Below the pieces are notes generated by a model. The model was given only the letters and a program-made list of their open reading frames with translations, was not told where the DNA came from and did no database searches. This document shows positions 12,439 to 55,170 of a stretch of DNA of 64,000 nucleotides, piece by piece. The DNA lies in NCBI GenBank assembly GCA_004022145.1, contig RCNU01000016.1; one strand, 5' to 3'. Numbering within the stretch: the stretch's first letter is position 1; each line of letters starts with the position of its first letter. This DNA comes from Paecilomyces variotii. Its lineage: Eukaryota. Position numbers and translations under genes: made by a program.

Positions 12439-15253
12439 TTAGCTCTGGCCGGGGGGCGGCGGCTGGGCAGGGGAAGAACTGCCTTGAGCACCGCCCATCA
12501 TGAAGCCGGGAGGAAACATGGGAACACCGGGGAACGAGAAACCGAAACCAGGAACTGCCGGCGGCACTCCGACATTGGCGTTGGACACGTCTCGATCAGG
12601 ATGGCCGCCCGGACCACCCGGACCGCCGTGGCCATGGCTATCCATACCACGCTCCGGACGACGACCTCCGAAGCGGTCGTGCTGAGAGCGAGAAGATTGG
12701 GGACCACGCTGACCTCCCTTGTCAGTAGCCATACGTCGACTGATAGCTTTCGACGACACCCCGGCACCGATCTCGATATCGGGTTCCTCGACGACCATTC
12801 CGGACTCGATCTGTCTACCGCCCGTTCCACCGTATTCAGCGGTAAGCATCCACTTGCGATCGGCCTCCGTTAGTCTCTCGATCGGGATAACACTGACACC
12901 CGTCTGGTAGTCGCTGCAGTCACGTGGGCCGAACCCAACACCCCATCGTGTCTATTACCTCGTCAGTACATTTCTTCAATAAAAAATATTGTTAAATCAC
13001 GTACCCTGAGCTGCATGTCGCCGGACTTGTACTGCTCCATACCCTCGCGGGCATTCACAGCATCCTGACGGTTGATCATCTTGACGAAGGCATGGCGCTT
13101 GTCGACGTTGACAATGCAAGTCTGGACAACACCAAACTTGTTGAAAAGAGAGCGCAGGTGGGCCTCAGAAGAACTATGAAGATGTTAACAAAAGAGCAGG
13201 GTTGAGAGAAGTTTTGGGGGAAGAGCAACTTACGTGACACCACCAACGAAAAGGGTACGGCTGAGCACTGTTACAGAAAGTGTAAGTAACCGGATGTATA
13301 TCTGAGCATCGGCGAGAACGAACCTTTGATGTTACCCTGGCCTATCGAGTAATCCCACTCGACAAACTTGGGTCCAGGAGGGGGCAAAGTCGGGTCCTTA
13401 CGGGGAGGCGTGGGCGTACGGCGTCTTCGACCGGCAGGGCTGCGCTGGCGATAGTCATTGGGCCGACGGCGAGCGTCGCGGGGATCCCCGCCTCTACGAC
13501 CAGGGGAGTCTCCGTTGTACTCGCCATATACGGGGCTGTCGCGACGGCGCGGAGGAGAGACATCGCGGCGTCGATCCCAGCCGGGAGAGCGGGAGCGACG
13601 ACGATATCCGCCGGGCGGAGAGCGCATGTAGTCACGTTCCCTCTCGCGGTCCCGGTCCATGTCACGTGATGGCACGTCGGTGCGGGCGCCCCAGGCATTC
13701 ACGTTTTGGCCTGGCGGCTGCATATAACCCGGCATCTGGCCGGCGGCCATGTTGGCCATACCGGTGTTGGCGCTGTTGGACAGACTAAGGATTTGCAGTG
13801 CGGTCGCCCACTGCTCCTGCGGGATTCCCTGGGCCGCCAGGAGCTGGAGCAGCTGCACCTGCTGGAGCGCCTCTGGCGCGATGGCCGGTGCCGCGGGGGC
13901 CGCTGTGGCCTGGGGGAGCAGCGCTGCCAGCGGGTTCTGAGGAGCAGCTAACGGGTTGGGAGTCTGACTCTGAGAGACCAGGCCTTGGTTCTGAGCGACA
14001 TTACCCAGGGCCGCAAACGGCGTCGCTAGATTTCCTGCATAAGGGTTTACGGCAGCCTGCCCGTTCGGTGGTTGCGAAGCCTGGTCTACGGACGAGGTCA
14101 CCGGCGGCGCAGCTGCAGTCTGTGTACTTAATAGAGAATTACTCTGTGCCGGCACGCTCGGGGCGGTCGGGGCGGGGGTGCTCTGTTTCGCCATGTCTGC
14201 AAGAGCCTTCAGTATGCTCGAGGTATCCGGGGCAGGAGTCGAAGTAGCAACGCCGTTCTGCTGCTGCTGCTGCTGCTGGGGGGCGCCAAAGGGGATATGG
14301 CCTGGTGCGGGGGAGCCATCGGGGGTGGTAGATTCAACGTCTAGAACAGAAGCAGAAATAGTATTAGAATCACGTTGTCCAACACAAGCTTGACCGCCGA
14401 CGGTATTTAATACTGGTCGGACAGAGATACAGATCAGTAAGTTTGAGGGGAGCTTACTGTGAGACGGGGGAGCGTTTAATTTCTCTTTGAACGAAGCAAG
14501 CATCGGTGCAGGGAAGGTGTAGCCACGCTCCCAGATATCCACCAGCTTCTTGATTTTTTCCTAAACACGACAGCACATGATACGTAAGTTGGACTATTCG
14601 GTCACAGATAGCGGAAGAAGCGCCTGGACGGCAACAAGACACGTCTAAGTGGGAAGTATAAGGGACCAGCAGCGGGAAATACGGAGATCCGATCTTATAG
14701 GTGATTAACGGGGCTCTACGAGCCAACCGCATCTCATCGGCCGCTATTGCCCGCAACGGTCTCTGGTATTCTTGATGATTATCTTTGTGGTCTTTTCTAG
14801 AGCGTACCTTTTGATCTTCAGGAGCATTGTTTATGATATCTGTCATCAGAACGGGTAACAGTTCGGTCACTCTGTTAACGCCAGCGGCGAAGGTTCCATC
14901 GGGAGCTGCACTACCGGAGGGCTGGCCCGCCTTGCGCGCTGCTTCTACCCACTGTCGAGTTACGGAGTCTACGACATAGAGTACGCCCAACTTGTGTGTT
15001 CCCGGTGCCCTCTTGAAGTGCGTGTAGATCTTCTGGATGAGAACAGACTCGGACTGCGAACAAGGATGAAGTTAGCATGGGTGTCCCGTCAACACATCAT
15101 AAGACGGCAGAGATAAAATTGATAGGCACATACCTGAACGTTGGCTGTACAGAGCGAAGTGATGCTGTTGATCTTGGATCCTGATACACCTGGGGGTTTA
15201 AGAGCAAGCATGGACTGGAGATAGCCATCCAGCTCTGCTACGGCAGAAGACAT
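12439..15253 (-). CDS. nrd1: Nrd1/Seb1-like RNA-binding protein (CTD-interacting domain + RS-rich region + RRM)
   Basis: N-terminus MSSAVAELDGYLQSMLALKPPGVSGSKINSIT, LGVLYVVDSVTR (CID), R/S/D-rich segment, RRM SRTLFVGGV..FNKFGVVQTCIVNVDKRHAFVKM..RWGVGFGPRDCSDY. Multiple GT-AG introns. Confidence 0.93.
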
Positions 15254-44440: not shown

Positions 44441-45385
44441 AGTTTTCTTTTGTTGTTTCCGATTCATGAGACCTTGTTACAGGATTGTACTCATACTTGA
44501 GACGATGCAACGATATTCATGACTTTTTACGGCCCTCGACTGACTGTCAGCGAGATTCTCGGGAACCGAATGTGACAACATACCAAGACCGCCATATTTC
44601 TGCTTTCCCTTCGCATCATTTCTGAATCTGCCTGGCAACGCATTTGCAGTACTGGCGTCTTGATTTATCCTTTTGTACACCAATTTTGGATGCTACTGCA
44701 TGCACCAACATCATAACGACGAAATCTTACCATATGTGTTTATGATCGAAGCTATGTCTCACTTCACTTATGGCAAGCAGCATCTGGCCTCTTGGTTTCC
44801 TTTTCATGATTGTGCTTTTATTTTTACACCCTTTTTTTCTTTTCTTTTTCTCTTCTGTGGCAAATCGCCCTATGATCATCTATGCAGAGAGAGCAGCTTT
44901 GCGTCAGAAAACAAACTGCACTATCATCCCCTCCTCATTTTGCCCCTGGTTTACCAGACGATTGATCATTTTGACGCAGAAGCAAGCATGACAGTATATT
45001 ACAGTGTGCTGGTCTCAGAGCTGGCGATCCCACTTCTTGTGTCTTCTTTGATTCAGAACGGGACATTGGTTTGCACATGCAACTGATTAGCTCCTGGGTT
45101 TGGTATTTGAAGATTTATGGCTTCATGTCACTGGATCTCTTTGGAAACCATTTTGTCTTTATATTGGCATTAGGCAGAATAGATGTATCCATACTTTGAA
45201 CCGCATTGGTCTTGTAGTGATCTTACTGTCCTACATCAATCCATTGGCTTTACTCAGCTATTCTAGTTTGTAGACATAATTCTGGGAAACCTTCTTCTTT
45301 GCCATGTAAACGCATCTATGATATGCTACCATAAAGATGCACATGAATAGCTGAATAAGTTGAGATTGCTCATCTCGGATAATTA

Positions 45386-45432
45386 CTGTATTTAATTATC
45401 TGCCGACCGTTTCTACCTGCCGACTGTTTTTT
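45386..45432. repeat. Left terminal inverted repeat of the DNA transposon
   Basis: Pairs with ~54999-55045, with five mismatches, four of them transitions. Confidence 0.9.
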
Positions 45433-46033
45433 ACTATAGAACGCTGAATTATTAAATCTACTAGATTTCAATAATAATATGTTTAAATTAATTAATATTT
45501 AGAGGGTTTAATCTAGGCGAATAGTAGATTATATTAGACTAGTTTTTAGGATCTCTAAATTGCTTAGGGAGTTATATCTGCTGTCCTTAACTAATTATTA
45601 TTAAGGGGATTATTTTAGCTTTAACTACCTATTTAATAGTATTTTCTTCTAATATCTGTTATTTTATAGGTTTAAATCTCTTCCTTAGGCTTTAATTAGC
45701 CTATTTTAATTCTTTTTAAAGCTAAATAGCTGCCTATTTTATTACTTTTTCTTCTTTTTTAAAGTATTATTTTTCCTCCTATACTTATAGATAAGGCTAA
45801 ATAGTCTATTTCTTAAATTTTATGCTTTTTTTAAGTAATATATTATTTTTTTTCTTACTGCTACTATTGCTAAAATTAAAGCTTTTATTTTTAGTATTAT
45901 AATTATTATTTAGCTTTCTCCTTATTTATTAGAATCTATTATACCTCTTAAACTTTAATTAGACTAAAAAAAATAGTATTATTATCTTTTAATTAGTAGG
46001 AAAAAAGCTATAAAGTCTTAGTAAGCTATTACT

Positions 46034-46465
46034 TATAAGGAACGGGGGTTCCTAGAAGTTACTGATAAATTACTCCGCCAGCGATTATAGCGAGAGGGGT
46101 AATAGCTTTATATATCTAGCTCGGAGAAGGGTCTATTAGTAAGATAAAGGGTTAACTATTATAATAAAGGGTCTAATTAGTATAGAGAAGAGTCTATGCT
46201 AGAAGGTCCTAATAGTAAAGAATCTATATAAATAAAGAAATAGTAGGGTATATATTATATTAGAATAAATTACTAGCTTCTAATAAGATAGCAATCTAGA
46301 GCCTATTTATATTCTAAATCTTAAGCACTTCTTAGCTTTATCTTATATAAATTCTAAAAGTGGGAAGAGTAGAATTTAACTAATTACCTTAGTATTATAT
46401 TTAAATTTAGAGCTTTACTATAGTCCTATAAGCTTATGCCCTAGCAAGAAGCTAAGGGCATAATA
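46034..46465 (-). repeat. 3' LTR (432 bp)
   Basis: Same length as 53138-53569 and colinear with it; differences seen are C/T and G/A transitions. Confidence 0.95.
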
Positions 46466-46466
46466 A

Positions 46467-46482
46467 TATTCTCTCTCTTTTT
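46467..46482 (-). other. Polypurine tract (plus-strand primer) of the retrotransposon
   Basis: Minus strand reads aaaaagagagagaata immediately before the 3' LTR. Confidence 0.75.
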
Positions 46483-46880
46483 AAAGGCTTATCTTTAAGC
46501 TATTATAAAGTTATTATATTAAATATAGAATATAGCTTTATAGAGGTTTATAATATAATAAATAAAAGAACTTCTTGCTATCTTTATAATAAAAGGTTAA
46601 GAAATTATATAAATTAGAAGTGTTATTTATATAATATTATAAGGTTAGAATTTTAACCTCTAGTAACTATCTTCCTACTTCCTGCTATATATAGCTCCTA
46701 GTCTTAAATATGTTTAAATAAAGATCTAGACGTATTTTTAAGGTTATAATAATACTAATAGTATAGCAGTTTATTAAACTTAAAAAATTAATTATTTTTT
46801 TATTAGTTTTTAAAGCTTCCTGCTTTAAGGGTAAGTTATCTTAATTAACTATATTAATATAAGCTAATTTAATTTAGATA

Positions 46881-48132
46881 ATACCGCCCTGAATTTATTT
46901 TATATCTAAGTAATATAAGAAGACTTCTTAAGTAAGTATTCTAGTATAAGATTTTATATATTATATGCTAATTTCTATAGTATTAATAGTTTAAGAATAT
47001 TATCTCCCCCTCTAGGGAGCTATCTCCTCCTCCTGCCTCTAAGATAGAGAATATAACTGCTGCTATTATAATATAGCTAAATCTAATTACTACTATAATA
47101 TTAGAAAATAATCCTCTAACTATTATTAAGATATTAGGGACTTTAGCCGCTATTATAATACTAGAGAGATTACCTCCTTAGATAAATATTACCCCTTTTA
47201 TAGCTATTAATAGATCGGTATCTCTATTTACTTTAAATCCTGTAGAGGATCTATTAGTTAAAATAAATATTACGCTAGAATTAAGGTATAAAAGATTTAT
47301 ACCTCTACTAGATTAGCCTTTTTCTATAGTTTTAGCTATTATATAAATAAGTTTATTTAACTTAATAATAGCGCCAAAAAGCCTGCTAAAAAGAAAGAGG
47401 ACTTATCTTATTATTAAATTAGCTATTATAGCTAAGCTAAGGGTAACTTCTGCTTATACTATAAAAAGGCCTTAGAGATAAAGTATAGGGCATAAAAAGG
47501 TTATTAATATAAAAACCTAGACTAAATTAGCTATTATTAAAATACTAATTAAGACTACTATTATTGCTATTACTAATATAATAGTAGAGAATAGCTTTAT
47601 TATCTTTTAGCTAGGTAAGGAGTTTCTTCTAATATTTTAAAAGATATGCCTTTATTATTTAAAGGGGCTAATTAAGAATCTAGCACTTTAGTATACCTAT
47701 ACTAATACTAATATTAAGTGCAACTATTATAATTATAAGTATAAGCCCTATATTTTAATCTTACTAGTTTATAAGGATAAGCTTATTTATCTACAGAGCC
47801 TTAGCTAAGAGGCCTATCTCTTAGATAATTATAAGTCCTTTAAGAAGGCCTATAATAAATATAAATCCTTTATAGAGGTATACCTGTATAAAATACCTAC
47901 TAAGGTAAATATAAATAAGCTTATATTTACTATCTTATTAACCCTATCTTTATATAAGCAGTTTATAATATAGCTCCAGTAAAAGTTACTTAGATTACTC
48001 TATTTAATAGTATTAAATCTGCAGCGCGTATAAGAAATTATATATATTACTTATAATATTCCTTCTTTCTCTAATAAGGAGGAGAATAAATCTATACTAA
48101 TAGGGTTCTATAATAGTAAAATAGATAAGTAG
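46881..48132 (+). pseudogene. RIP-mutated two-exon antisense accessory gene inside the retrotransposon (about 400 codons, reconstructed C6 zinc-cluster-like motif)
   Basis: Exon 1 46881-46931 (ATA CCG CCC TGA.., de-RIP MPPR..), intron 46932-46980 (GTAAGT..GCTAAT..TAG), exon 2 46981-48132 read in a single frame. All stops are TAA/TAG/TGA, which RIP can derive from CAA/CAG/CGA/TGG. Surviving text includes IISPSRELSPPPAS, APKSLLKRKR and an acidic-looking tail. Confidence 0.7.
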
Positions 48133-48314
48133 AGAGAATTAATCTTAGGCCTATATTTTTAGTTCTTATTAGGGGTAGCTTAATTAAAATAAATTTATTT
48201 CTAGATAGACTAGCTTCTTATATTTTTATTAAAACTCTTAAACCTCTATAGATAGGTAAATAGAAAAAAAGTAATATAAATTTAACAATAAAATAGTTAA
48301 GTAAAATTTATAAA

Positions 48315-51300
48315 CTTAGTAGGAAAAAAGAGAAATTTTACTAGTTTTATTAACTCCTTTTTCTAGAGCTTTTTAGAGCCCTTCTTAAAGAGGTCTTATT
48401 AACAGCTTATATTATTACCTTAAATTTAGCTAATATATCTTAGATATATTTAAGGTCTTCCTTAAGCTGCTATAAATTTTTATAATCTAAATAGCCCTTT
48501 TATTTAATTAAATATTGCTTTTTTTCTTATATTATCTATTTATTTAAAATAGCTTTAATCTCCTATTCTAGTTTATTATCTACTAAGATTAGGTCTAGAT
48601 ACTTAAGTTTAGCCCTTAGTCTCTAATAATAGGGCTCTAATAGGGAGATATAAAAAATTAAGTATATTTTACCTAGGCTCTTTGGGAGCTTAAGCTAATA
48701 GCCTATAGGCTTAAGTTCTAATTCTCTCTATAACTTTATAAGGTCCTGAGTATTTTATATCTAATTTCTTAATTAATTAATCTGTCTTTAAATTCTTTAT
48801 TAAAAGGCAGACTTAGTCTCCTACTATATAAGATCTAGGCTTATACTTCTTATTATAATACTTCTATTGCGTAATAATAGCCTTTTAGAGGAATTCTTCT
48901 AATTAAATATATATTTTAGCAAGTTTCTTTAATTAATTATTAACTGCTAGTATATTTATTCGCTTCCTAGAGTTATAATTATCTTAACTTCTAGGGTTAA
49001 ATCTATAAATAATACAGAAGGGAGTTATACCTATAAAGGCATAGATTAAATTATTATATGTAAACTCTGCTATAGTTAATAAAGATACTTAATTATCTTG
49101 CTTATAGTTTAAATAGACTTAGAGATAATACTCTAGCATCTAATTCTGCCTTTTAGTCTAGCTATTAGTCTGGGGATAAAATATAGTGCTTAAAAGTCTA
49201 ATAATTTAAATATAGCAGTAAAGTTCTATCTAGTATTTATTAGTAAATAGCGCCCCTCTATTTAATATAATTAACTATAGAGGTTTAAAGCAGTTATAAA
49301 TATAATCTATAACAAGGTTAGCTATTTTATTTACCTTTAATATTTTATAAGTAGGGATATAGAGCACTATCTTTAAATAGCAGTCTATAATTATTAATAT
49401 TAAATTATAGATAATTCCTTATTTCTCTAATAGCAGCAGTCTTACTATAAAATTTATTAAGATATTCTATTATAGCTGCGCTAAGATTAGCAGAGACTTT
49501 AGCTCTTTATATAGCTTATACTATAGAATTTAGTTTTTCTAGCAAATATTATATATAGATATATACTCTTATATATCCTATACTATCTTAAGCTAATTAA
49601 ATCTTCTTTAAAGCAGCTCTTTAGTTTTCTTAATACCTTAATACTCTATATAAAGGTTATTATAATATATTTAAAGGAGCTCTTACTTTATAGTGGGTAT
49701 ATCTAATATAAATATAGTACTACTCTTCTATAGTAGTCCTTTATTGTCTATTCTCTATACTATCTCTAAGCTATCTCTAGGAATATACGCTTTTAGTTCC
49801 CTAGTTTTCTTTAAGATAAAGGTATTCCTTACTTAAAGCTGCTTTAATATAAAGAGCAGGCTAGAAATTATAGTATCTTAAATAGACTCTTCCCTAATTA
49901 TTTTAATAACTAGTATTCTTTATACTAGATATTCTAGACTACCTATACTACCCGCTTTAATAAGTTTATGCTCTAGACTGCTTTCTTATATATACTTATC
50001 TTAAGCTTTATATAAGAGCTTTTTTTAAAGACTATAAAGAGTTAGAAGTAATTCTATCTAGGATTTAAATTTAGATAGTTTAAAATCTACCCTCTTAAAT
50101 AGGGTATCTGTAGCATTAAGTTATCTTAGCTTATATTTAATTTAAAAGTTATATGCTGCTAATAATTCTGCCTATTAAGCTTATCTATTATTTAATATCT
50201 TTACAGTAAAGAAATAGCATAAGTTTATATAATTACTTTATACCTATATAGGGTATTTACTACCTTCTAGATAATAATACTAATATTTAAAAGTATTAAC
50301 AATAGCTAGAAGTTCTTAGTTATAGATCTTATAGCATGCCTCTATTTTAATAAACTTCTAAGCATAATATACTACAGGGTGCTAGTTCTTAGATACAGTT
50401 TATTAATCTATTTAAATTCTAATTTATAGACCTATCTCTAACCTAGTACTTAGAGCTATCTTATTACTGTCTCCCTGAAGGAGTATAGCGGTAAGAGCAA
50501 ATCTTAAGATATTAGTTGCTAGTATTATTAGCTTCTCTAAATTAAAATGCCTTAATACTAGCAGAGTTATAAAAGCTAATTTTAGCTTATTAAATACCTT
50601 TGCAGCTTCTCTAATCTAGGTAAATATCTTAATTTTCTTCCCCTAGATGCTTTTTTTTAGCAGATTAATTAGAGGAGCTGTCTTTATAAAGTAATTATAG
50701 ATAAATCTTCTAAAGAAACTAGTAAATCTTAGGAAGACTTAAACTTTCTTAAAGAATTTAAGCTCTAGCTAATCTCTAATAGTTTTTATTCTACTAGGAT
50801 CTATTTCTATTCTATCTTTTCCTATAAAAAAATTAAGGAATTTAACTCTTTCCTTATATAATTTATATTTAGATAACTTTATATATAATTTATACTCTTA
50901 TAGCCTCTCTAGGACCTGCACTATATATCTCTTATACTCCTTAATAGAGTTAGAGAAGATTAAGATATTATTTAAATATATAATATAATAAATATCTAAT
51001 AATCCCTATAATACCTAATTAATATAGGCTTAAAAAATAGCAGGCGCATTATACAGGCTAAATAGTATTATTAAGTATTTAAAGTATCTATAATAGGTTT
51101 AGAAGGCTATCTTCTATTTATCTCCTTAGCAGATTTAAATCTAATAATAGGCGTCCCTAAGATTAAGCTTAGTAAAGATCTTAGAGCTAATTAATTAGTT
51201 AAGCATTTTATCTATTCTAGGTAAAGGATATCTGTTTTTTATAGTAATGCTATTTAAAGCTCTATAGTTAATACAGAGCCTTAATATATTATCTGCCTTT

Positions 51301-53100
51301 AGAATAAATAGAATAGGTGCCTCTATAAGACTAGTTAATAATTATATCTAATTCTTCTATTATATATCTTTAAGATATTTATATAGAATATCTAATTTTT
51401 TAGCAGAGAGGTTATAAAGTCTACTTTATAGAGGCGCCTTACTATTTAAAAGTTTAATCTTATATTTATTTATCTTAGCAGGCAATATACTTATACCCTT
51501 CTTTAAGAAGACTTTAATATACTTCTTATATTCTAGAGGTAGGTTTTTAAAAGTAATAGGGTTAATTTAGTCCCTATAGAATATATAGATTATCTCTTTT
51601 CTTACTATCTTAGAGAATTATTAAGCACTTTTAATCTTTACCTATAGCTAATATAGAATATAATATCTTTAAGTTATTAACTCTTAATTTATAATAGGAT
51701 TTATAGCATATAGCTATAGTTTCTTAAGAATAATACTTAATCTAGGTATTAGGATAATATAAAAGCATACTTTTACTTTTTCTATTATTTCTTTAGAGTT
51801 AGTAATATAGATCTCTGCTTCGAATAATCTATACTTCTAAATTTTATACCTATTAATAGATTTAAAGTTTATATACTATTAGAAGTTTAAAGGAATTCTA
51901 TAATATATAGCTATATCTAGGCTAATATAGCAGCGGGCTAATCTAGAATTAATAAAAACCTTATCTTTAAATATATTATTAAGAAGGTGCAGTTATACTA
52001 AGATATATAAAGATTCTTTCTCTAGCTTAAACTCTTTATTATAAAAGGCTATAATAGTCTTAGGTTTTCCTTTCTTAAAGAGGTCTTTTTTTTTTAGGCA
52101 TAATTTAAATCTCTATATATAGCCTGTTTTATTATAGTTAAAGCAATAATCTTCTTTTTTAAGCCGATCTTATTCTATTAGTAATCTGAACTTCTTTTTT
52201 TTTAGGGTTTAGTTAGCTCTGCGCGCTAGTTATTAGTCTCCTTCTTCTTTTGCCCTAGGGGGGAGTCCTTTAATATATTCTATATTAATCTACTCGCGTT
52301 TAGCGGAGTAAGTTAATTTATAGTCTTATTCTTCTTTTAGTTTATCTCCTAATTAGTAGCTAAAGATACTAATTAGTTAAGGTTTATTAGGAGATCTTAA
52401 TAATTTAATAACTTTATTTAAATCTTAAGTTATAATTTTATATAGAAGATATAAGACTAGATAATTCTATTATTATTAAACCCTTTACCCTAATTTAACT
52501 TTACTTAAGCCTGCTTAAAATAGTGTAAAAAGGCTTAAGCGGTTTAATTAAAATATTAGATTAAGGTATAAAAACAGTTTATTACATTTTATTCTTAGTA
52601 ATATAGATTATTAAGCAAATCTAGTAACTAACCCTTAAATCCTTCTTAGGTTAATATCTAGAAGTTAGGATCCTCTTGCTAGTAAATCTAAGACTAAGCT
52701 AATTCTCTATCTAGCAACACTGCAGTATAGGTAACTTTCTTAGCTTTATCTTTAAATAACAAAGTATTATAAGCTAAGTATTTATCTATATACTAGCATT
52801 ACTAGTAATAGGCATTAAGTATAGTAGCTTTATACCTCTATAATTCTAGTAGCTTAAGCCTTAGCTGCTTATTAGTATAACTAGCAGTAAGGAGCTATAG
52901 GAGGTCTCTCTTTATTAATAATTTATTTTCTATTTGAGCTCGCTTTATCCCTAAGCCTATTAGAGTATCTTCTAGGGTTTATAAGCTAGCTTTAGCAATC
53001 GGTTACTGCAAGCTAGGTTTAGCGCTCTCCGAATCCTTTAAAATATATATTATAGGCTAAGTGCTAAGACCTTTATCCCCTAAATTATAGAATATATTAA
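48315..53100 (-). pseudogene. RIP-mutated gag-pol (zinc knuckle, protease, RT, RNase H region, integrase, chromodomain)
   Basis: Minus-strand relics: CFNYNKTGYI (CFNCNKTGH, ~52145), VFINSR (FIDSG protease, ~51950), YFKYLIILFSLYNAPAIF*AYIN (HFEYLVMPFGLCNAPATFQ, ~51060), IIYLNNILIFS (YLDD, ~50970), STIFYPQTNS*TKRQN*MLEYYL (integrase, ~49160), KQYLIK*KGY..NL*Q (chromodomain, ~48500). Ends approximate. Confidence 0.92.
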
Positions 53101-53137
53101 TACTGCTACTTATATTGCTAGGTTAAGCAATTTAAAT

Positions 53138-53569
53138 TATAAGGAATAGGGGTTCCTAGAGATTGCTAATAAATTACTCCGCTAGCAATTATAGCGAGAG
53201 AAGTAATAGCTTTATATATTTAGCTTAAAGAAAGATCTACTAATAAAATAAAGGGTTAACTATTATAATAAAGGGTCTAACTAGTGTAGAGAAAAGTCTA
53301 TACTAAAGGGTCCTAATAATAAAGAGTCTATATAAGTAAAGAAATAATAAGGTATATATTATATTAAAATAGATTGCTAGCTTCTAATAAGATAATAATC
53401 TAGAGCCTATTTATATTCTAAATCTTAAGCACTTCCTAGCTTTATCTTATATAAATCCTGAAAGCGAGGAGAGCGGGGTTTAACTAATTACCTCAGTATT
53501 ATATTTAGATTTAGGGCTTCGCTACAGTCTTACGAGCTTATGCCTTAGTAAGAAGCTAGGGGCATAATA
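53138..53569 (-). repeat. 5' LTR (432 bp)
   Basis: Direct repeat of 46034-46465, adjacent to the gag start. Confidence 0.95.
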
Positions 53570-53574
53570 TTACT

Positions 53575-54900
53575 TTAACTGCTTATTAAAAATAATATAT
53601 TATAGACTAGTATTCTATTATTAGAGGAGTATATTTTTAATATATAGGTCTATTATAATATTTATAAGCTTTAATATCTTCTTATTATATATATTATTTA
53701 GAACTTCTTATAGAAGCTTTTTAATCCCCCGCTAATTACTTATAGATAATACTAATTAACTTAATTTACTAGAGAAAGGCCTATCTTTAGGTTTCTTTTT
53801 AAAATGCTTAAGAATAATCTATAGGTTAAATAGGTATAGACCGGTTGCTGCCTATTTATTATTAATATTTTTTATTATAAAAATAATATCTTAGCTAAAG
53901 AAGAAGAGATTAAAAAAATCTCTCTTCTTAAAGCAGCTAAGTCTTAGGCATTTATTTATTTATATATTTAATTAAGTATTATAGGCTCTAGCTAATAGGC
54001 TAAATAAAGAAATATTAAGTAACTATAATATATAGATAGAATAAGATAGAAATAATAATAATAAGATTCTATTATAATTATAATAATTAATAAAATATTT
54101 TATAATATAAGAGTTATAGCTATTAAGGATTAATAGCTAATAGCTTTTACTTACCTTTACCTTAGTCTTTTTATTAAAGATTTTAACTAGCTAGCAATAT
54201 CTTATCTTATTATTAGTCTAGCTACTAAGAGAAAAGATAAAAAAATATTTATAAATTTTAGGATTAAATATTTAAAGCTATATATCTTATAATTTTTTTA
54301 GTATAGTTTTATAGATTAAAGCTAATAATAAAAATATTTTATTTATATAAATAGCAGCAAATACTATAATTTATTTCTTATTCTTATCTTAGATTAATTA
54401 TTTAATATATCCTTATTTATAGTAATAATAAGAAAAGATTTTTTTAACTTTTTTTAAAACTCTAATTATAAAACCTTTTTTATCTATATTATAGATATTA
54501 TATAGCTTAATCTTAAATTTCTAAAGCTTTTAATCTATAAACTTAAAATATAGGGAATATTTAAATATAAAATTAGCTTACTTATATAAGATATTTATAA
54601 TAATATCCTAAGCTAATAAGAGGTCTTATTTATATCTTTTTATAAAATATAATAGCTATTGCTTTTTAAACTCTTTTTTAAAAATTTTTTTATAAAGTTT
54701 TATAATATTTTATATAAAAGAGATAAGTTATATTCTATAAGGCTATTAATCTATTTAATAAATATTTTTTCTTACTAGATATTTAGGAATTATTAGTTTT
54801 TATATTAGACTATTAACAGGCCCTAGATACCCTTATATTATTATGTTAAGATTATATAGTTTATACTATATTTTTTTGCAATTTTTATATAATTAGGTTT
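53575..54900 (-). pseudogene. RIP-mutated DDE_1 (pogo/Fot1) transposase, N-terminal and catalytic part; C-terminal part lies at ~45500-46033
   Basis: Minus strand ~54150-53980 reads Y*LLILNSYNSYI (YRLLILDGHNSH) and LLLFLSYSIYIL*LLNISLFSLLARAY (FPPHSTH.LQPLDVSLFGPLARAY), diagnostic DDE_1 motifs. Boundaries approximate. Confidence 0.85.
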
Positions 54901-54998
54901 TTTGTCAGGCTCTAAAGACTTTAAATCTTTAAGAGCTAATAAAATAGGATCTATATTAGTAGTTTGGTGGGTGGTTGAATTAATTGGGGGAGTTTTAA

Positions 54999-55045
54999 AA
55001 AAAACAGTCGGCAGGTGGAAACGGTCGTCAGATGACTAAACACAG
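54999..55045. repeat. Right terminal inverted repeat of the DNA transposon
   Basis: aaaaaacagtcggcaggtggaaacggtcgtcagatgactaaacacag followed by TA. Confidence 0.9.
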
Positions 55046-55170
55046 TAGCGCACGTGACCTGACGCGCTGCTCGTCGCGTTCTCGAAGAGATGCCTTTCAT
55101 CAAAGGGGAAGACCATACATCTGCAGGCCGTCACTTGGCCACTTCACGTCTTCAGAAACAAGGAAACTCC

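Follow-up and report, generated by a model that had tools for sequence, protein, structure and literature searches.

Extra genes in the LTR retrotransposons of fungi have, to our knowledge, rarely been reported. One such gene, brtn, reportedly consists of two exons and is said to have been described by Zhao et al. (2011, Virology 417:248) in Botrytis, a genus of the Leotiomycetes. Antisense genes also lie near the 3' LTR of deltaretroviruses, where they encode a nuclear protein and where some isoforms are spliced. As the published accounts have it, brtn is an additional antisense gene of the Boty-like (BcGypsy1) retrotransposons of Botrytis cinerea (PMC8365987, PMC4227169), and the deltaretroviral genes include HBZ of HTLV-1 and APH-2 of HTLV-2 (PMC11963269). 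Among plant Ty3/Gypsy retrotransposons, maize Grande, rice RIRE2, and the Silene and other Retand elements with a TRP28 domain are described as carrying an ORF termed aORF-3R, for which a nuclear or regulatory role is suspected (PMC7264820, PMC11963269). Paecilomyces variotii itself is reported to contain a putative Tf2-type retrotransposon, Tn123, of 7,091 bp in strain CBS 144490, and RIP-mutated copies of this element form AT-rich regions (PMC6300479).

Here, we describe an orphan addition to the extra antisense ORFs known from LTR retrotransposons, of the kind represented by brtn. It was found in a stretch of 64,000 nucleotides of P. variotii DNA, which we refer to as the window. In our main reading, to which we assign a probability of roughly 0.85, the interval that separates pol from the 3' LTR in a Ty3/Gypsy chromovirus of the window is the RIP-destroyed relic of a two-exon accessory gene of that P. 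variotii element family.

The resemblance to brtn, the closest precedent among fungi, is one of setting: both host elements are fungal Ty3/Gypsy chromoviruses (gag, RT, IN, and CHROMO are described for the Botrytis element; PMC4227169) with an extra gene antisense to gag-pol. The two cases differ in host class, P. variotii belonging to the Eurotiales (PMC6300479), and in sequence, since library searches in which the presence of brtn itself is unconfirmed surfaced no similarity between them. The plant aORF-3R, as described, shares with our gene an opposite-strand position between pol and the 3' LTR and its occurrence in most copies of the family, but the plant elements are of the Tat/Retand type, Retand being a non-chromovirus lineage (PMC11963269), and their reported intervals measure 2.9 to 6.6 kb compared with 1.86 kb in P. 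variotii. Neither the antisense gene nor its relatives gave a Pfam match to Transposase_28 (PF04195), the family of the plant TRP28 proteins. HBZ and APH-2 likewise encode proteins antisense to a reverse-transcribing element, close to its 3' LTR; the P. variotii element, in contrast, is a retrotransposon and not an infectious virus, any promoter in its 3' LTR is hypothetical, and the relatives of its antisense gene gave no Pfam match to bZIP. Tn123 resembles the host element in species, in its Tf2/Gypsy type, in its size (the LTRs of the window element are about 7.1 kb apart from start to start), and in having copies made AT-rich by CpA>TpA RIP (PMC6300479). In this comparison, which is by description and not by sequence, the difference is that the available text on Tn123 mentions no antisense gene (PMC6300479). 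Across the literature searched, brtn was the sole fungal antisense case found, and no description of the present gene in P. variotii was found.

The host element and its unexplained interval

The element lies within an AT-rich block of the window (about 45000 to 55000) that has a GC content of 17 to 30%, while the rest of the window is at about 50%. Comparison of this block with itself by BLAST revealed one pair of direct repeats, 46022-46485 and 53124-53590, with 85% identity. Pairwise alignment of the two LTR regions ended slightly earlier, at about 46466 and about 53570, than the BLAST ends at 46485 and 53590. We therefore place the 3' LTR at 46022-46466 on the minus strand, where the shared sequence starts at TATTATGCCC and the minus-strand 5' end is uncertain by a few bases; the 5' LTR, which both comparisons support, is placed at 53124 to about 53570 on the same strand. 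Directly before the 3' LTR is a polypurine tract, AAAAAGAGAGAGAA on the minus strand (46482-46469), and the alignment of the two LTR regions contained no such purine run upstream of the 5' LTR.

Between the LTRs, the minus strand contains a RIP-mutated gag-pol (48344-53123) that encoded reverse transcriptase (RT), RNase H, an integrase that includes an SH3-like domain, and a probable chromodomain. A single minus frame, read with X at stop codons, matched the Pfam families RVT_1 (E = 4.1e-17), RT_RNaseH_2 (2.2e-12), and RT_RNaseH (9e-11), and the same frame matched SH3_Tf2-1 at 8.5e-06, a score below the curated cut-off. Searches with chromoviral polyproteins by tblastn aligned about 1000 residues overall, from 51833 to 48699 in frame -3 and from 48703 to 48356 in frame -1, with a frameshift in pol near 48700, and RT, RNase H, and integrase were found in Gypsy order between the LTRs. 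Pfam gave no match to Chromo on the RIP-mutated frames. The segment from 48703 to 48356, however, aligns to residues 1478-1588 of P0010, a chromoviral polyprotein of Aspergillus hiratsukae for which PF00385 is among the precomputed domains, and a chromodomain-like motif, E.E...IL......YL.KWKGY, can be seen in the minus-strand translation. When the pol region was compared with proteins of 884 to 2814 amino acids, 163 matches were obtained, and the best 120 of these were examined; among these 120, the best named relatives were from Berkeleyomyces rouxiae and A. hiratsukae, and there was no named match from P. variotii.

The RIP indices of the element are extreme, with TpA/ApT at 1.52 and (CpA+TpG)/(ApC+GpT) at 0.36; the host DNA around it has 0.73 and 1.16, respectively. 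Because these indices accompany a pair of LTRs and Pfam and tblastn matches to pol, we identify 46022-53590, by its sequence, as a Ty3/Gypsy chromovirus that lies on the minus strand and is heavily mutated by RIP.

A first-pass annotation of the window had drawn attention to a stretch between pol and the polypurine tract for which gag-pol offered no explanation, and had placed the end of pol near 48315. The stretch is indeed there and measures about 1.86 kb, but the end of pol lies 30 to 40 bp further right. The alignment to the A. hiratsukae polyprotein reaches residue 1588 of 1592 at 48356, which puts the end of pol at about 48344.

Layout and predicted splicing of the antisense gene

The first-pass annotation proposed that this interval holds a spliced gene on the plus strand, and the sequence elements on which it relied are all present: ATA CCG CCC TGA at 46881-46892, GTAAGT at 46932-46937, GCTAAT at 46967-46972, and TAG at 46978-46980, as well as AAT AAG GAG GAG AAT AAA shortly before a stop codon TAG at 48130-48132. 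The 384 codons that it read in one frame to 48132 have the fewest stops of the six frames (17, terminal stop included, for 46981-48132, compared to 26 to 67 in the other five). Chance does not account for this. In 1000 dinucleotide-preserving shuffles of 46483-48400, the most stop-poor 380-codon window across all frames had 33.3 stops on average and 22 at the least, with none at or below 15, while the frame 46990-48129 has 14 stops in 380 codons; a low-stop frame arising by chance was ruled out on this basis.

To look for relatives, the plus-frame translation of the window, with X at stop codons (P0001), was compared by phmmer to 1.84 billion representative proteins at E <= 0.001. Five were found: P0002 (248 amino acids [aa]; E = 4.6e-30), P0003 (97 aa; 2.8e-23), P0004 (72 aa; 2.0e-17), P0005 (207 aa; 1.3e-05), and P0006 (82 aa; 5.3e-04). 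P0002 and P0005 are annotated as hypothetical proteins of P. variotii strains, as is P0007 (135 aa), a member of the P0003 cluster. P0003, P0004, and P0006 come from short contigs, and fragments of the gene are found on individual short contigs in Logan, ENA, and JGI data. By tblastn, the relatives match the plus-strand translation of the window at 46993-47514 and 47617-48123, and jointly they span both halves and both termini of the gene. As gene models predicted in databases, which probably belong to one and the same family of repeats, they document an open frame rather than the production of a protein.

P0007 was the most informative for the 5' end of the gene. It begins MPPRICFVSKRRKKTPQPEDITSPSGELSPPPAS, in agreement with the MPPR start that had been predicted for the ancestral protein, and its residues 1-17, MPPRICFVSKRRKKTPQ, align to exon 1 (46881-46931, plus strand, 17 codons), which in the window reads IPP-stop-IYFISK-stop-YKKTS-stop. 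Every difference between the two is a C>T or G>A change. These changes include the mutation of the start codon from ATG to ATA and three RIP-type stops (46890 TGA, 46911 TAA, and 46929 TAA), which stand opposite R, R, and Q of P0007. When exon 1 is joined to the sequence from 46990 onward, P0007 aligns over 133 gap-free columns, 80 of which are identical; C>T or G>A alone can account for 52 of the 53 mismatches, whereas changes in the opposite direction can account for only 1, and the six window stops within the alignment are all opposite R or Q.

Exon 1 is followed by a predicted phase 0 intron, and the two exons are in different frames (46881 mod 3 = 0; 46990 mod 3 = 1). The first-pass annotation had given this intron 49 nt. 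Its donor (GTAAGT) and its phase stand, but its acceptor at 46978-46980 probably does not. The gene models of P0007 and P0002 continue across the exon junction uninterrupted, and both do without three codons that read in the window as Y followed by two stops; P0007 is collinear with the window without a gap only upon removal of 58 nt. Because P0007 and P0002 do not have these three codons, the TAG at 46987-46989 is the more likely acceptor, which gives an intron of 58 nt (46932-46989, plus strand) with the branch-like GCTAAT at 46967-46972; the phase is 0 either way. Among the 15 of 25 contig joints examined, which included those of a metatranscriptome (X20), none connected 46931 to 46990 or to 46981, but these contigs derive from diverged and probably silent copies, so this result is uninformative either way.

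Exon 2 (46990-48132, plus strand) comprises 380 codons and the stop codon TAG at 48130-48132, and is supported by the phmmer and tblastn relatives and by the stop statistics. Its N-terminal half is Ser/Pro-rich with a KRKR patch, and its C-terminal half has a Cys motif and predicted helices as well as an acidic tail. The end of P0005, ..PPFSDEEEEDIIKGFYGGKVAE, coincides with ..IPSFSNKEENKSILIGFYNSKIDK in the window, which is followed by TAG. The two coding exons, 46881-46931 and 46990-48132, are thus predicted to have formerly encoded about 397 residues.

Upstream of exon 1, the region 46483-46880 (plus strand) is, by its position, the presumed promoter and 5' untranslated region. It contains a second intron-like unit (46831-46877, plus strand; GTAAGT..CTAAT..TAG) whose last base is 3 nt upstream of the start codon. 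Within 45001-55000, GTAAGT is found at just three places on the plus strand and at one on the minus strand. All three plus-strand sites are intron-like, and two of them, 46831 and 46932, are at the 5' end of the gene, each with CTAAT and TAG at intron-like distances downstream. At its other end, the gene converges on pol, as had been noted, and the gap of about 180 bp given for the two ends becomes a spacer of about 0.2 kb (48133-48343) now that pol ends at about 48344.

The copy of the gene in the window is dead. Its ATG has become ATA, and it has 17 internal stops, three in exon 1 and 14 RIP-type stops in exon 2, each of which is a type of stop that can arise by C>T or G>A. The earlier attribution of the stops to RIP agrees with the relatives, in which 14 of the 17 internal stops are opposite R, Q, or W. 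In the alignment to P0002, which is more distant than P0007, all 9 window stops are opposite R or Q, and 85 of 108 mismatches are RIP-derivable. In the alignment to P0005, which corresponds to the C-terminal half, 56 of its 117 mismatches are RIP-derivable, while indels and the other 61 mismatches lie beyond RIP, and 5 of its 7 window stops are opposite R or W, the other two being in poorly aligned stretches. The stop at 47518 is outside the P0002 and P0005 alignments.

Relatives, sister copies, and the origin of the gene

Bounded by the end of pol, with its probable chromodomain, on one side and by the polypurine tract on the other, the gene occupies the strand opposite gag-pol. This is the position that defines the plant aORF-3R and the one that had been proposed from the window sequence. 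The RIP signature of the gene is that of the rest of the element (TpA/ApT of 1.51 and 1.52, respectively, and a GC content of 0.256 in both). Since the gene is inside the LTR pair, is beyond the homology-defined end of pol, and shares this signature, it most likely belongs to the element.

Sister copies that lack the interval would have spoken against the gene being part of the family, as the first-pass annotation had pointed out. Contigs from four public runs (two with one species label, one food-fermentation metagenome, and the metatranscriptome X20) were placed on 46000-49000 at a likeness of at least 80%. The runs contributed 1905, 801, 1364, and 276 contigs, and all 30 bins of 46000-49000 were covered in 4 of 4 runs. 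The differences among these copies are nearly all transitions (in X1, 736 transition places versus 8 transversion places). Because such transition-diverged contigs occur in all four runs, many RIP-diverged sister copies hold the interval, as most copies of a family do in the case of aORF-3R. None of the contigs, which are short and extend over a few hundred bases at most, spans pol, gene, and LTR together; the antisense position beside pol was seen directly in the window alone. Separately, the contig cover from X20 may stem from DNA carry-over.

Protein searches outlined the family from the other side. P0002 covers residues ~1-190 of the gene and P0005 covers ~185-397, so that together they extend from start to stop. 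The protein-library searches yielded no full-length gene model, P0007, P0002, and P0005 all being partial, and those with the window protein, P0002, and P0005 yielded no named homologue outside P. variotii. A profile (A2) and P0005 gave 599 and 236 pattern matches, respectively, among metagenome contigs, with 0 confirmed, and A2 gave 48 among viral contigs, again with 0 confirmed.

P0002 is unusual among the relatives. It appears RIP-free, and it is identical in at least four accessions on 5 contigs that are up to 798 kb long. Its C terminus is a 55-residue coiled coil that is missing from the element in the window and is common to P0008, another P. variotii protein. P0002 could thus be a host or chimeric gene. 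In tblastn searches with composition correction off, P0002 and P0008 also matched 13631-14341 of the window; these matches vanished with the correction on.

These properties of P0002 bear on the question of where the gene came from. The element may have captured a host gene or gene fragment by transduction or recombination, with P0002 or its ancestor as the host source, an origin that we regard as unlikely. It would fit a gene family found in P. variotii only and a relative that appears RIP-free and is identical in at least four accessions, and it would also fit the 23 of 108 differences between P0002 and the window that lie beyond RIP and the different C terminus that P0002 has in common with P0008. 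The diverged sister contigs, which number in the hundreds and occur in all four runs, however, exclude a one-off capture in the window copy, so any capture must predate the amplification of the family. Moreover, an antisense position with an intron of its own is a recurrent layout of element-borne antisense ORFs in the accounts of plant and other systems (PMC7264820, PMC11963269). Capture as an origin and present-day membership in the element are, in any case, mutually compatible.

Coding status, possible function, and meaning

Features that had been predicted for the ancestral protein, namely, a Ser/Pro-rich N terminus, a KRKR patch, a Cys motif, and an acidic tail, can be recognized in the less mutated relatives P0002, P0005, and P0007. 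Residues 1-180 of P0002 are rich in Ser, Pro, and Ala and include the basic patches KRKRTRP and KRPRRRS, the first of which corresponds to the KRKR patch (LSKRKRT in P0002 and LLKRKRT in the window). P0005 has four Cys within 27 residues in LCYSKALVQDPKRRCVRPYINAKCLYC, two of which are Tyr in the window; downstream of these Cys are predicted helices and an acidic tail (FSDEEEEDII versus FSNKEENKSI in the window).

Domain and structure searches added little to this picture. Pfam returned no family for the plus frame or for any minus frame of 46486-48720; at E <= 1, it returned none for P0001, P0005, P0006, or P0007 and chance-level matches for P0002 and P0008 (E = 0.12 and 0.6). A PDB sequence search with P0005 gave 0 matches at E <= 1. 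AlphaFold2 run without an alignment modeled P0005 with a mean pLDDT of 40.4 and P0002 with a mean pLDDT of 61.7; in the latter, only a helix at 181-247 (67 residues) was confident, and it lies in the part absent from the element in the window, while residues 1-180 were modeled at low confidence. The best score in the ESM Atlas, 0.90, was to Ascomycota clusters and is uninformative, recognition being below the usual level.

The lack of a domain and of a confident fold (mean pLDDT of 40.4 and 61.7), together with an N-terminal half that looks disordered, is what would be expected if no protein was ever made and the interval were a noncoding sequence or an antisense RNA unit that ab initio gene finders had annotated; the named relatives are, after all, without exception predictions labeled hypothetical protein. 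We consider this very improbable, because even after RIP the gene frame has fewer stops per codon than the RT-IN frame of the element's own pol (14 in 380 compared to 72 in 921). In addition, the open stretches of the relatives, one no shorter than 190 codons and another no shorter than 200, together span the gene from start to stop, with the end of P0005 at the window stop. A start codon, a frame-restoring intron, and conserved motifs (AINRSVS, PVEDLL, KRKR, KPYIL, and GFY) also persist between diverged lineages. That the plus frame is just the mirror image of a minus-strand extension of pol or of an env-like ORF has a negligible chance of being correct: the complementary minus frame is also stop-poor (26 in 383 codons versus 44 to 67 in the remaining frames), but the plus frame has fewer (17), the pol homologue ends at 48356, the minus frames are without a Pfam match, and the protein relatives all match the plus translation.

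For an accessory gene of the chromovirus, we can sketch how intact copies might have worked. The antisense mRNA would start in or just inside the 3' LTR region and would be spliced; its intron, being antisense to the genomic RNA, could survive retrotransposition. The product would be a largely disordered Ser/Pro/Ala-rich protein with basic patches resembling nuclear localization signals and a Cys-containing, helical C-terminal half. By analogy to the systems described above, such a protein might tentatively be viewed as acting in the nucleus as an accessory or regulator of the element. The role of nuclear regulator or anti-silencing factor that the first-pass annotation suggested is likewise speculative. 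It is also conceivable, if rather doubtful, that the antisense transcript itself damps sense expression. A more elaborate scenario is speculative and unlikely: a lineage-restricted, element-borne nuclear factor would aid the persistence of the chromovirus in a RIP-proficient genome, by tuning its own transcription or chromatin or by antisense-RNA feedback, and P0002 would be a host-domesticated copy, kept identical in at least four strains and fused to a coiled-coil tail.

The gene would be a second, unrelated antisense example in fungi, and the retention of its intron fits the antisense orientation. This suggests that antisense accessory genes have originated repeatedly in chromoviruses, as they have in plant elements and deltaretroviruses. 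P. variotii is described as transformable, crossable, and RIP-active (PMC6300479), and this tractability makes a role of the gene in retrotransposition, silencing, or RIP avoidance directly testable. More generally, reading RIP backwards recovers coding relics from DNA at 25% GC, and what fungal proteomes list as hypothetical proteins can be pieces of accessory genes that belong to transposons.

A possible leader intron upstream of the antisense gene

The pattern GTAAGT occurs only three times on the plus strand in 10 kb, as found by pattern scan. One occurrence opens a second intron-like unit of 47 nt (positions 46831 to 46877, plus strand), in which GTAAGT is followed by GCTAAT and TAG. The start codon of the antisense gene, the two-exon relic carried on the plus strand of the chromovirus, lies 3 nt past the end of this unit. 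The unit may be a 5′-UTR intron of the antisense gene.

Sister copies and the pol frameshift

Within pol, the integrase and the chromodomain are read in separate frames, with the change at approximately 48698 to 48705. In all four public sequencing runs, sister contigs in which 7 nt of the window are missing account for about half of the depth at 48698; the frameshift is therefore an indel of 7 nt for which the copies are polymorphic. In run X10, one contig lacks 685 nt within 47719 to 48405 and carries 11 other letters instead; the sister copy it represents has lost the end of pol and the 3′ portion of the antisense gene through this deletion. Run X20, a metatranscriptome from a food fermentation, yielded 276 contigs that align to the element within 46000 to 49000 at 80% likeness or more. 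These may represent either RNA of RIP-mutated copies or DNA carry-over.

AT-rich DNA around the element

The AT-rich block reaches past the LTRs by approximately 1 kb on one side (45000 to 46021) and 1.4 kb on the other (53591 to 55000), and GC content in these flanks falls as low as 17 to 18%. The block also contains an inverted match of 49 nt at 90% identity (45384 to 45432 and 54999 to 55047). The element may have inserted into older repeat DNA or have been RIP-mutated along with such DNA.

A shared helix in two P. variotii proteins

In P0002, a hypothetical P. variotii protein of 248 residues, the N-terminal half of the antisense protein encoded by the element is joined to a coiled-coil helix (residues ~191 to 248) that is confidently predicted in the modeled structure. 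The same helix is present in a second P. variotii protein, P0008, but there the N terminus is unrelated; the window's element has no counterpart of the helix. P0002 may be a domesticated fusion, or its gene model may be a chimera.
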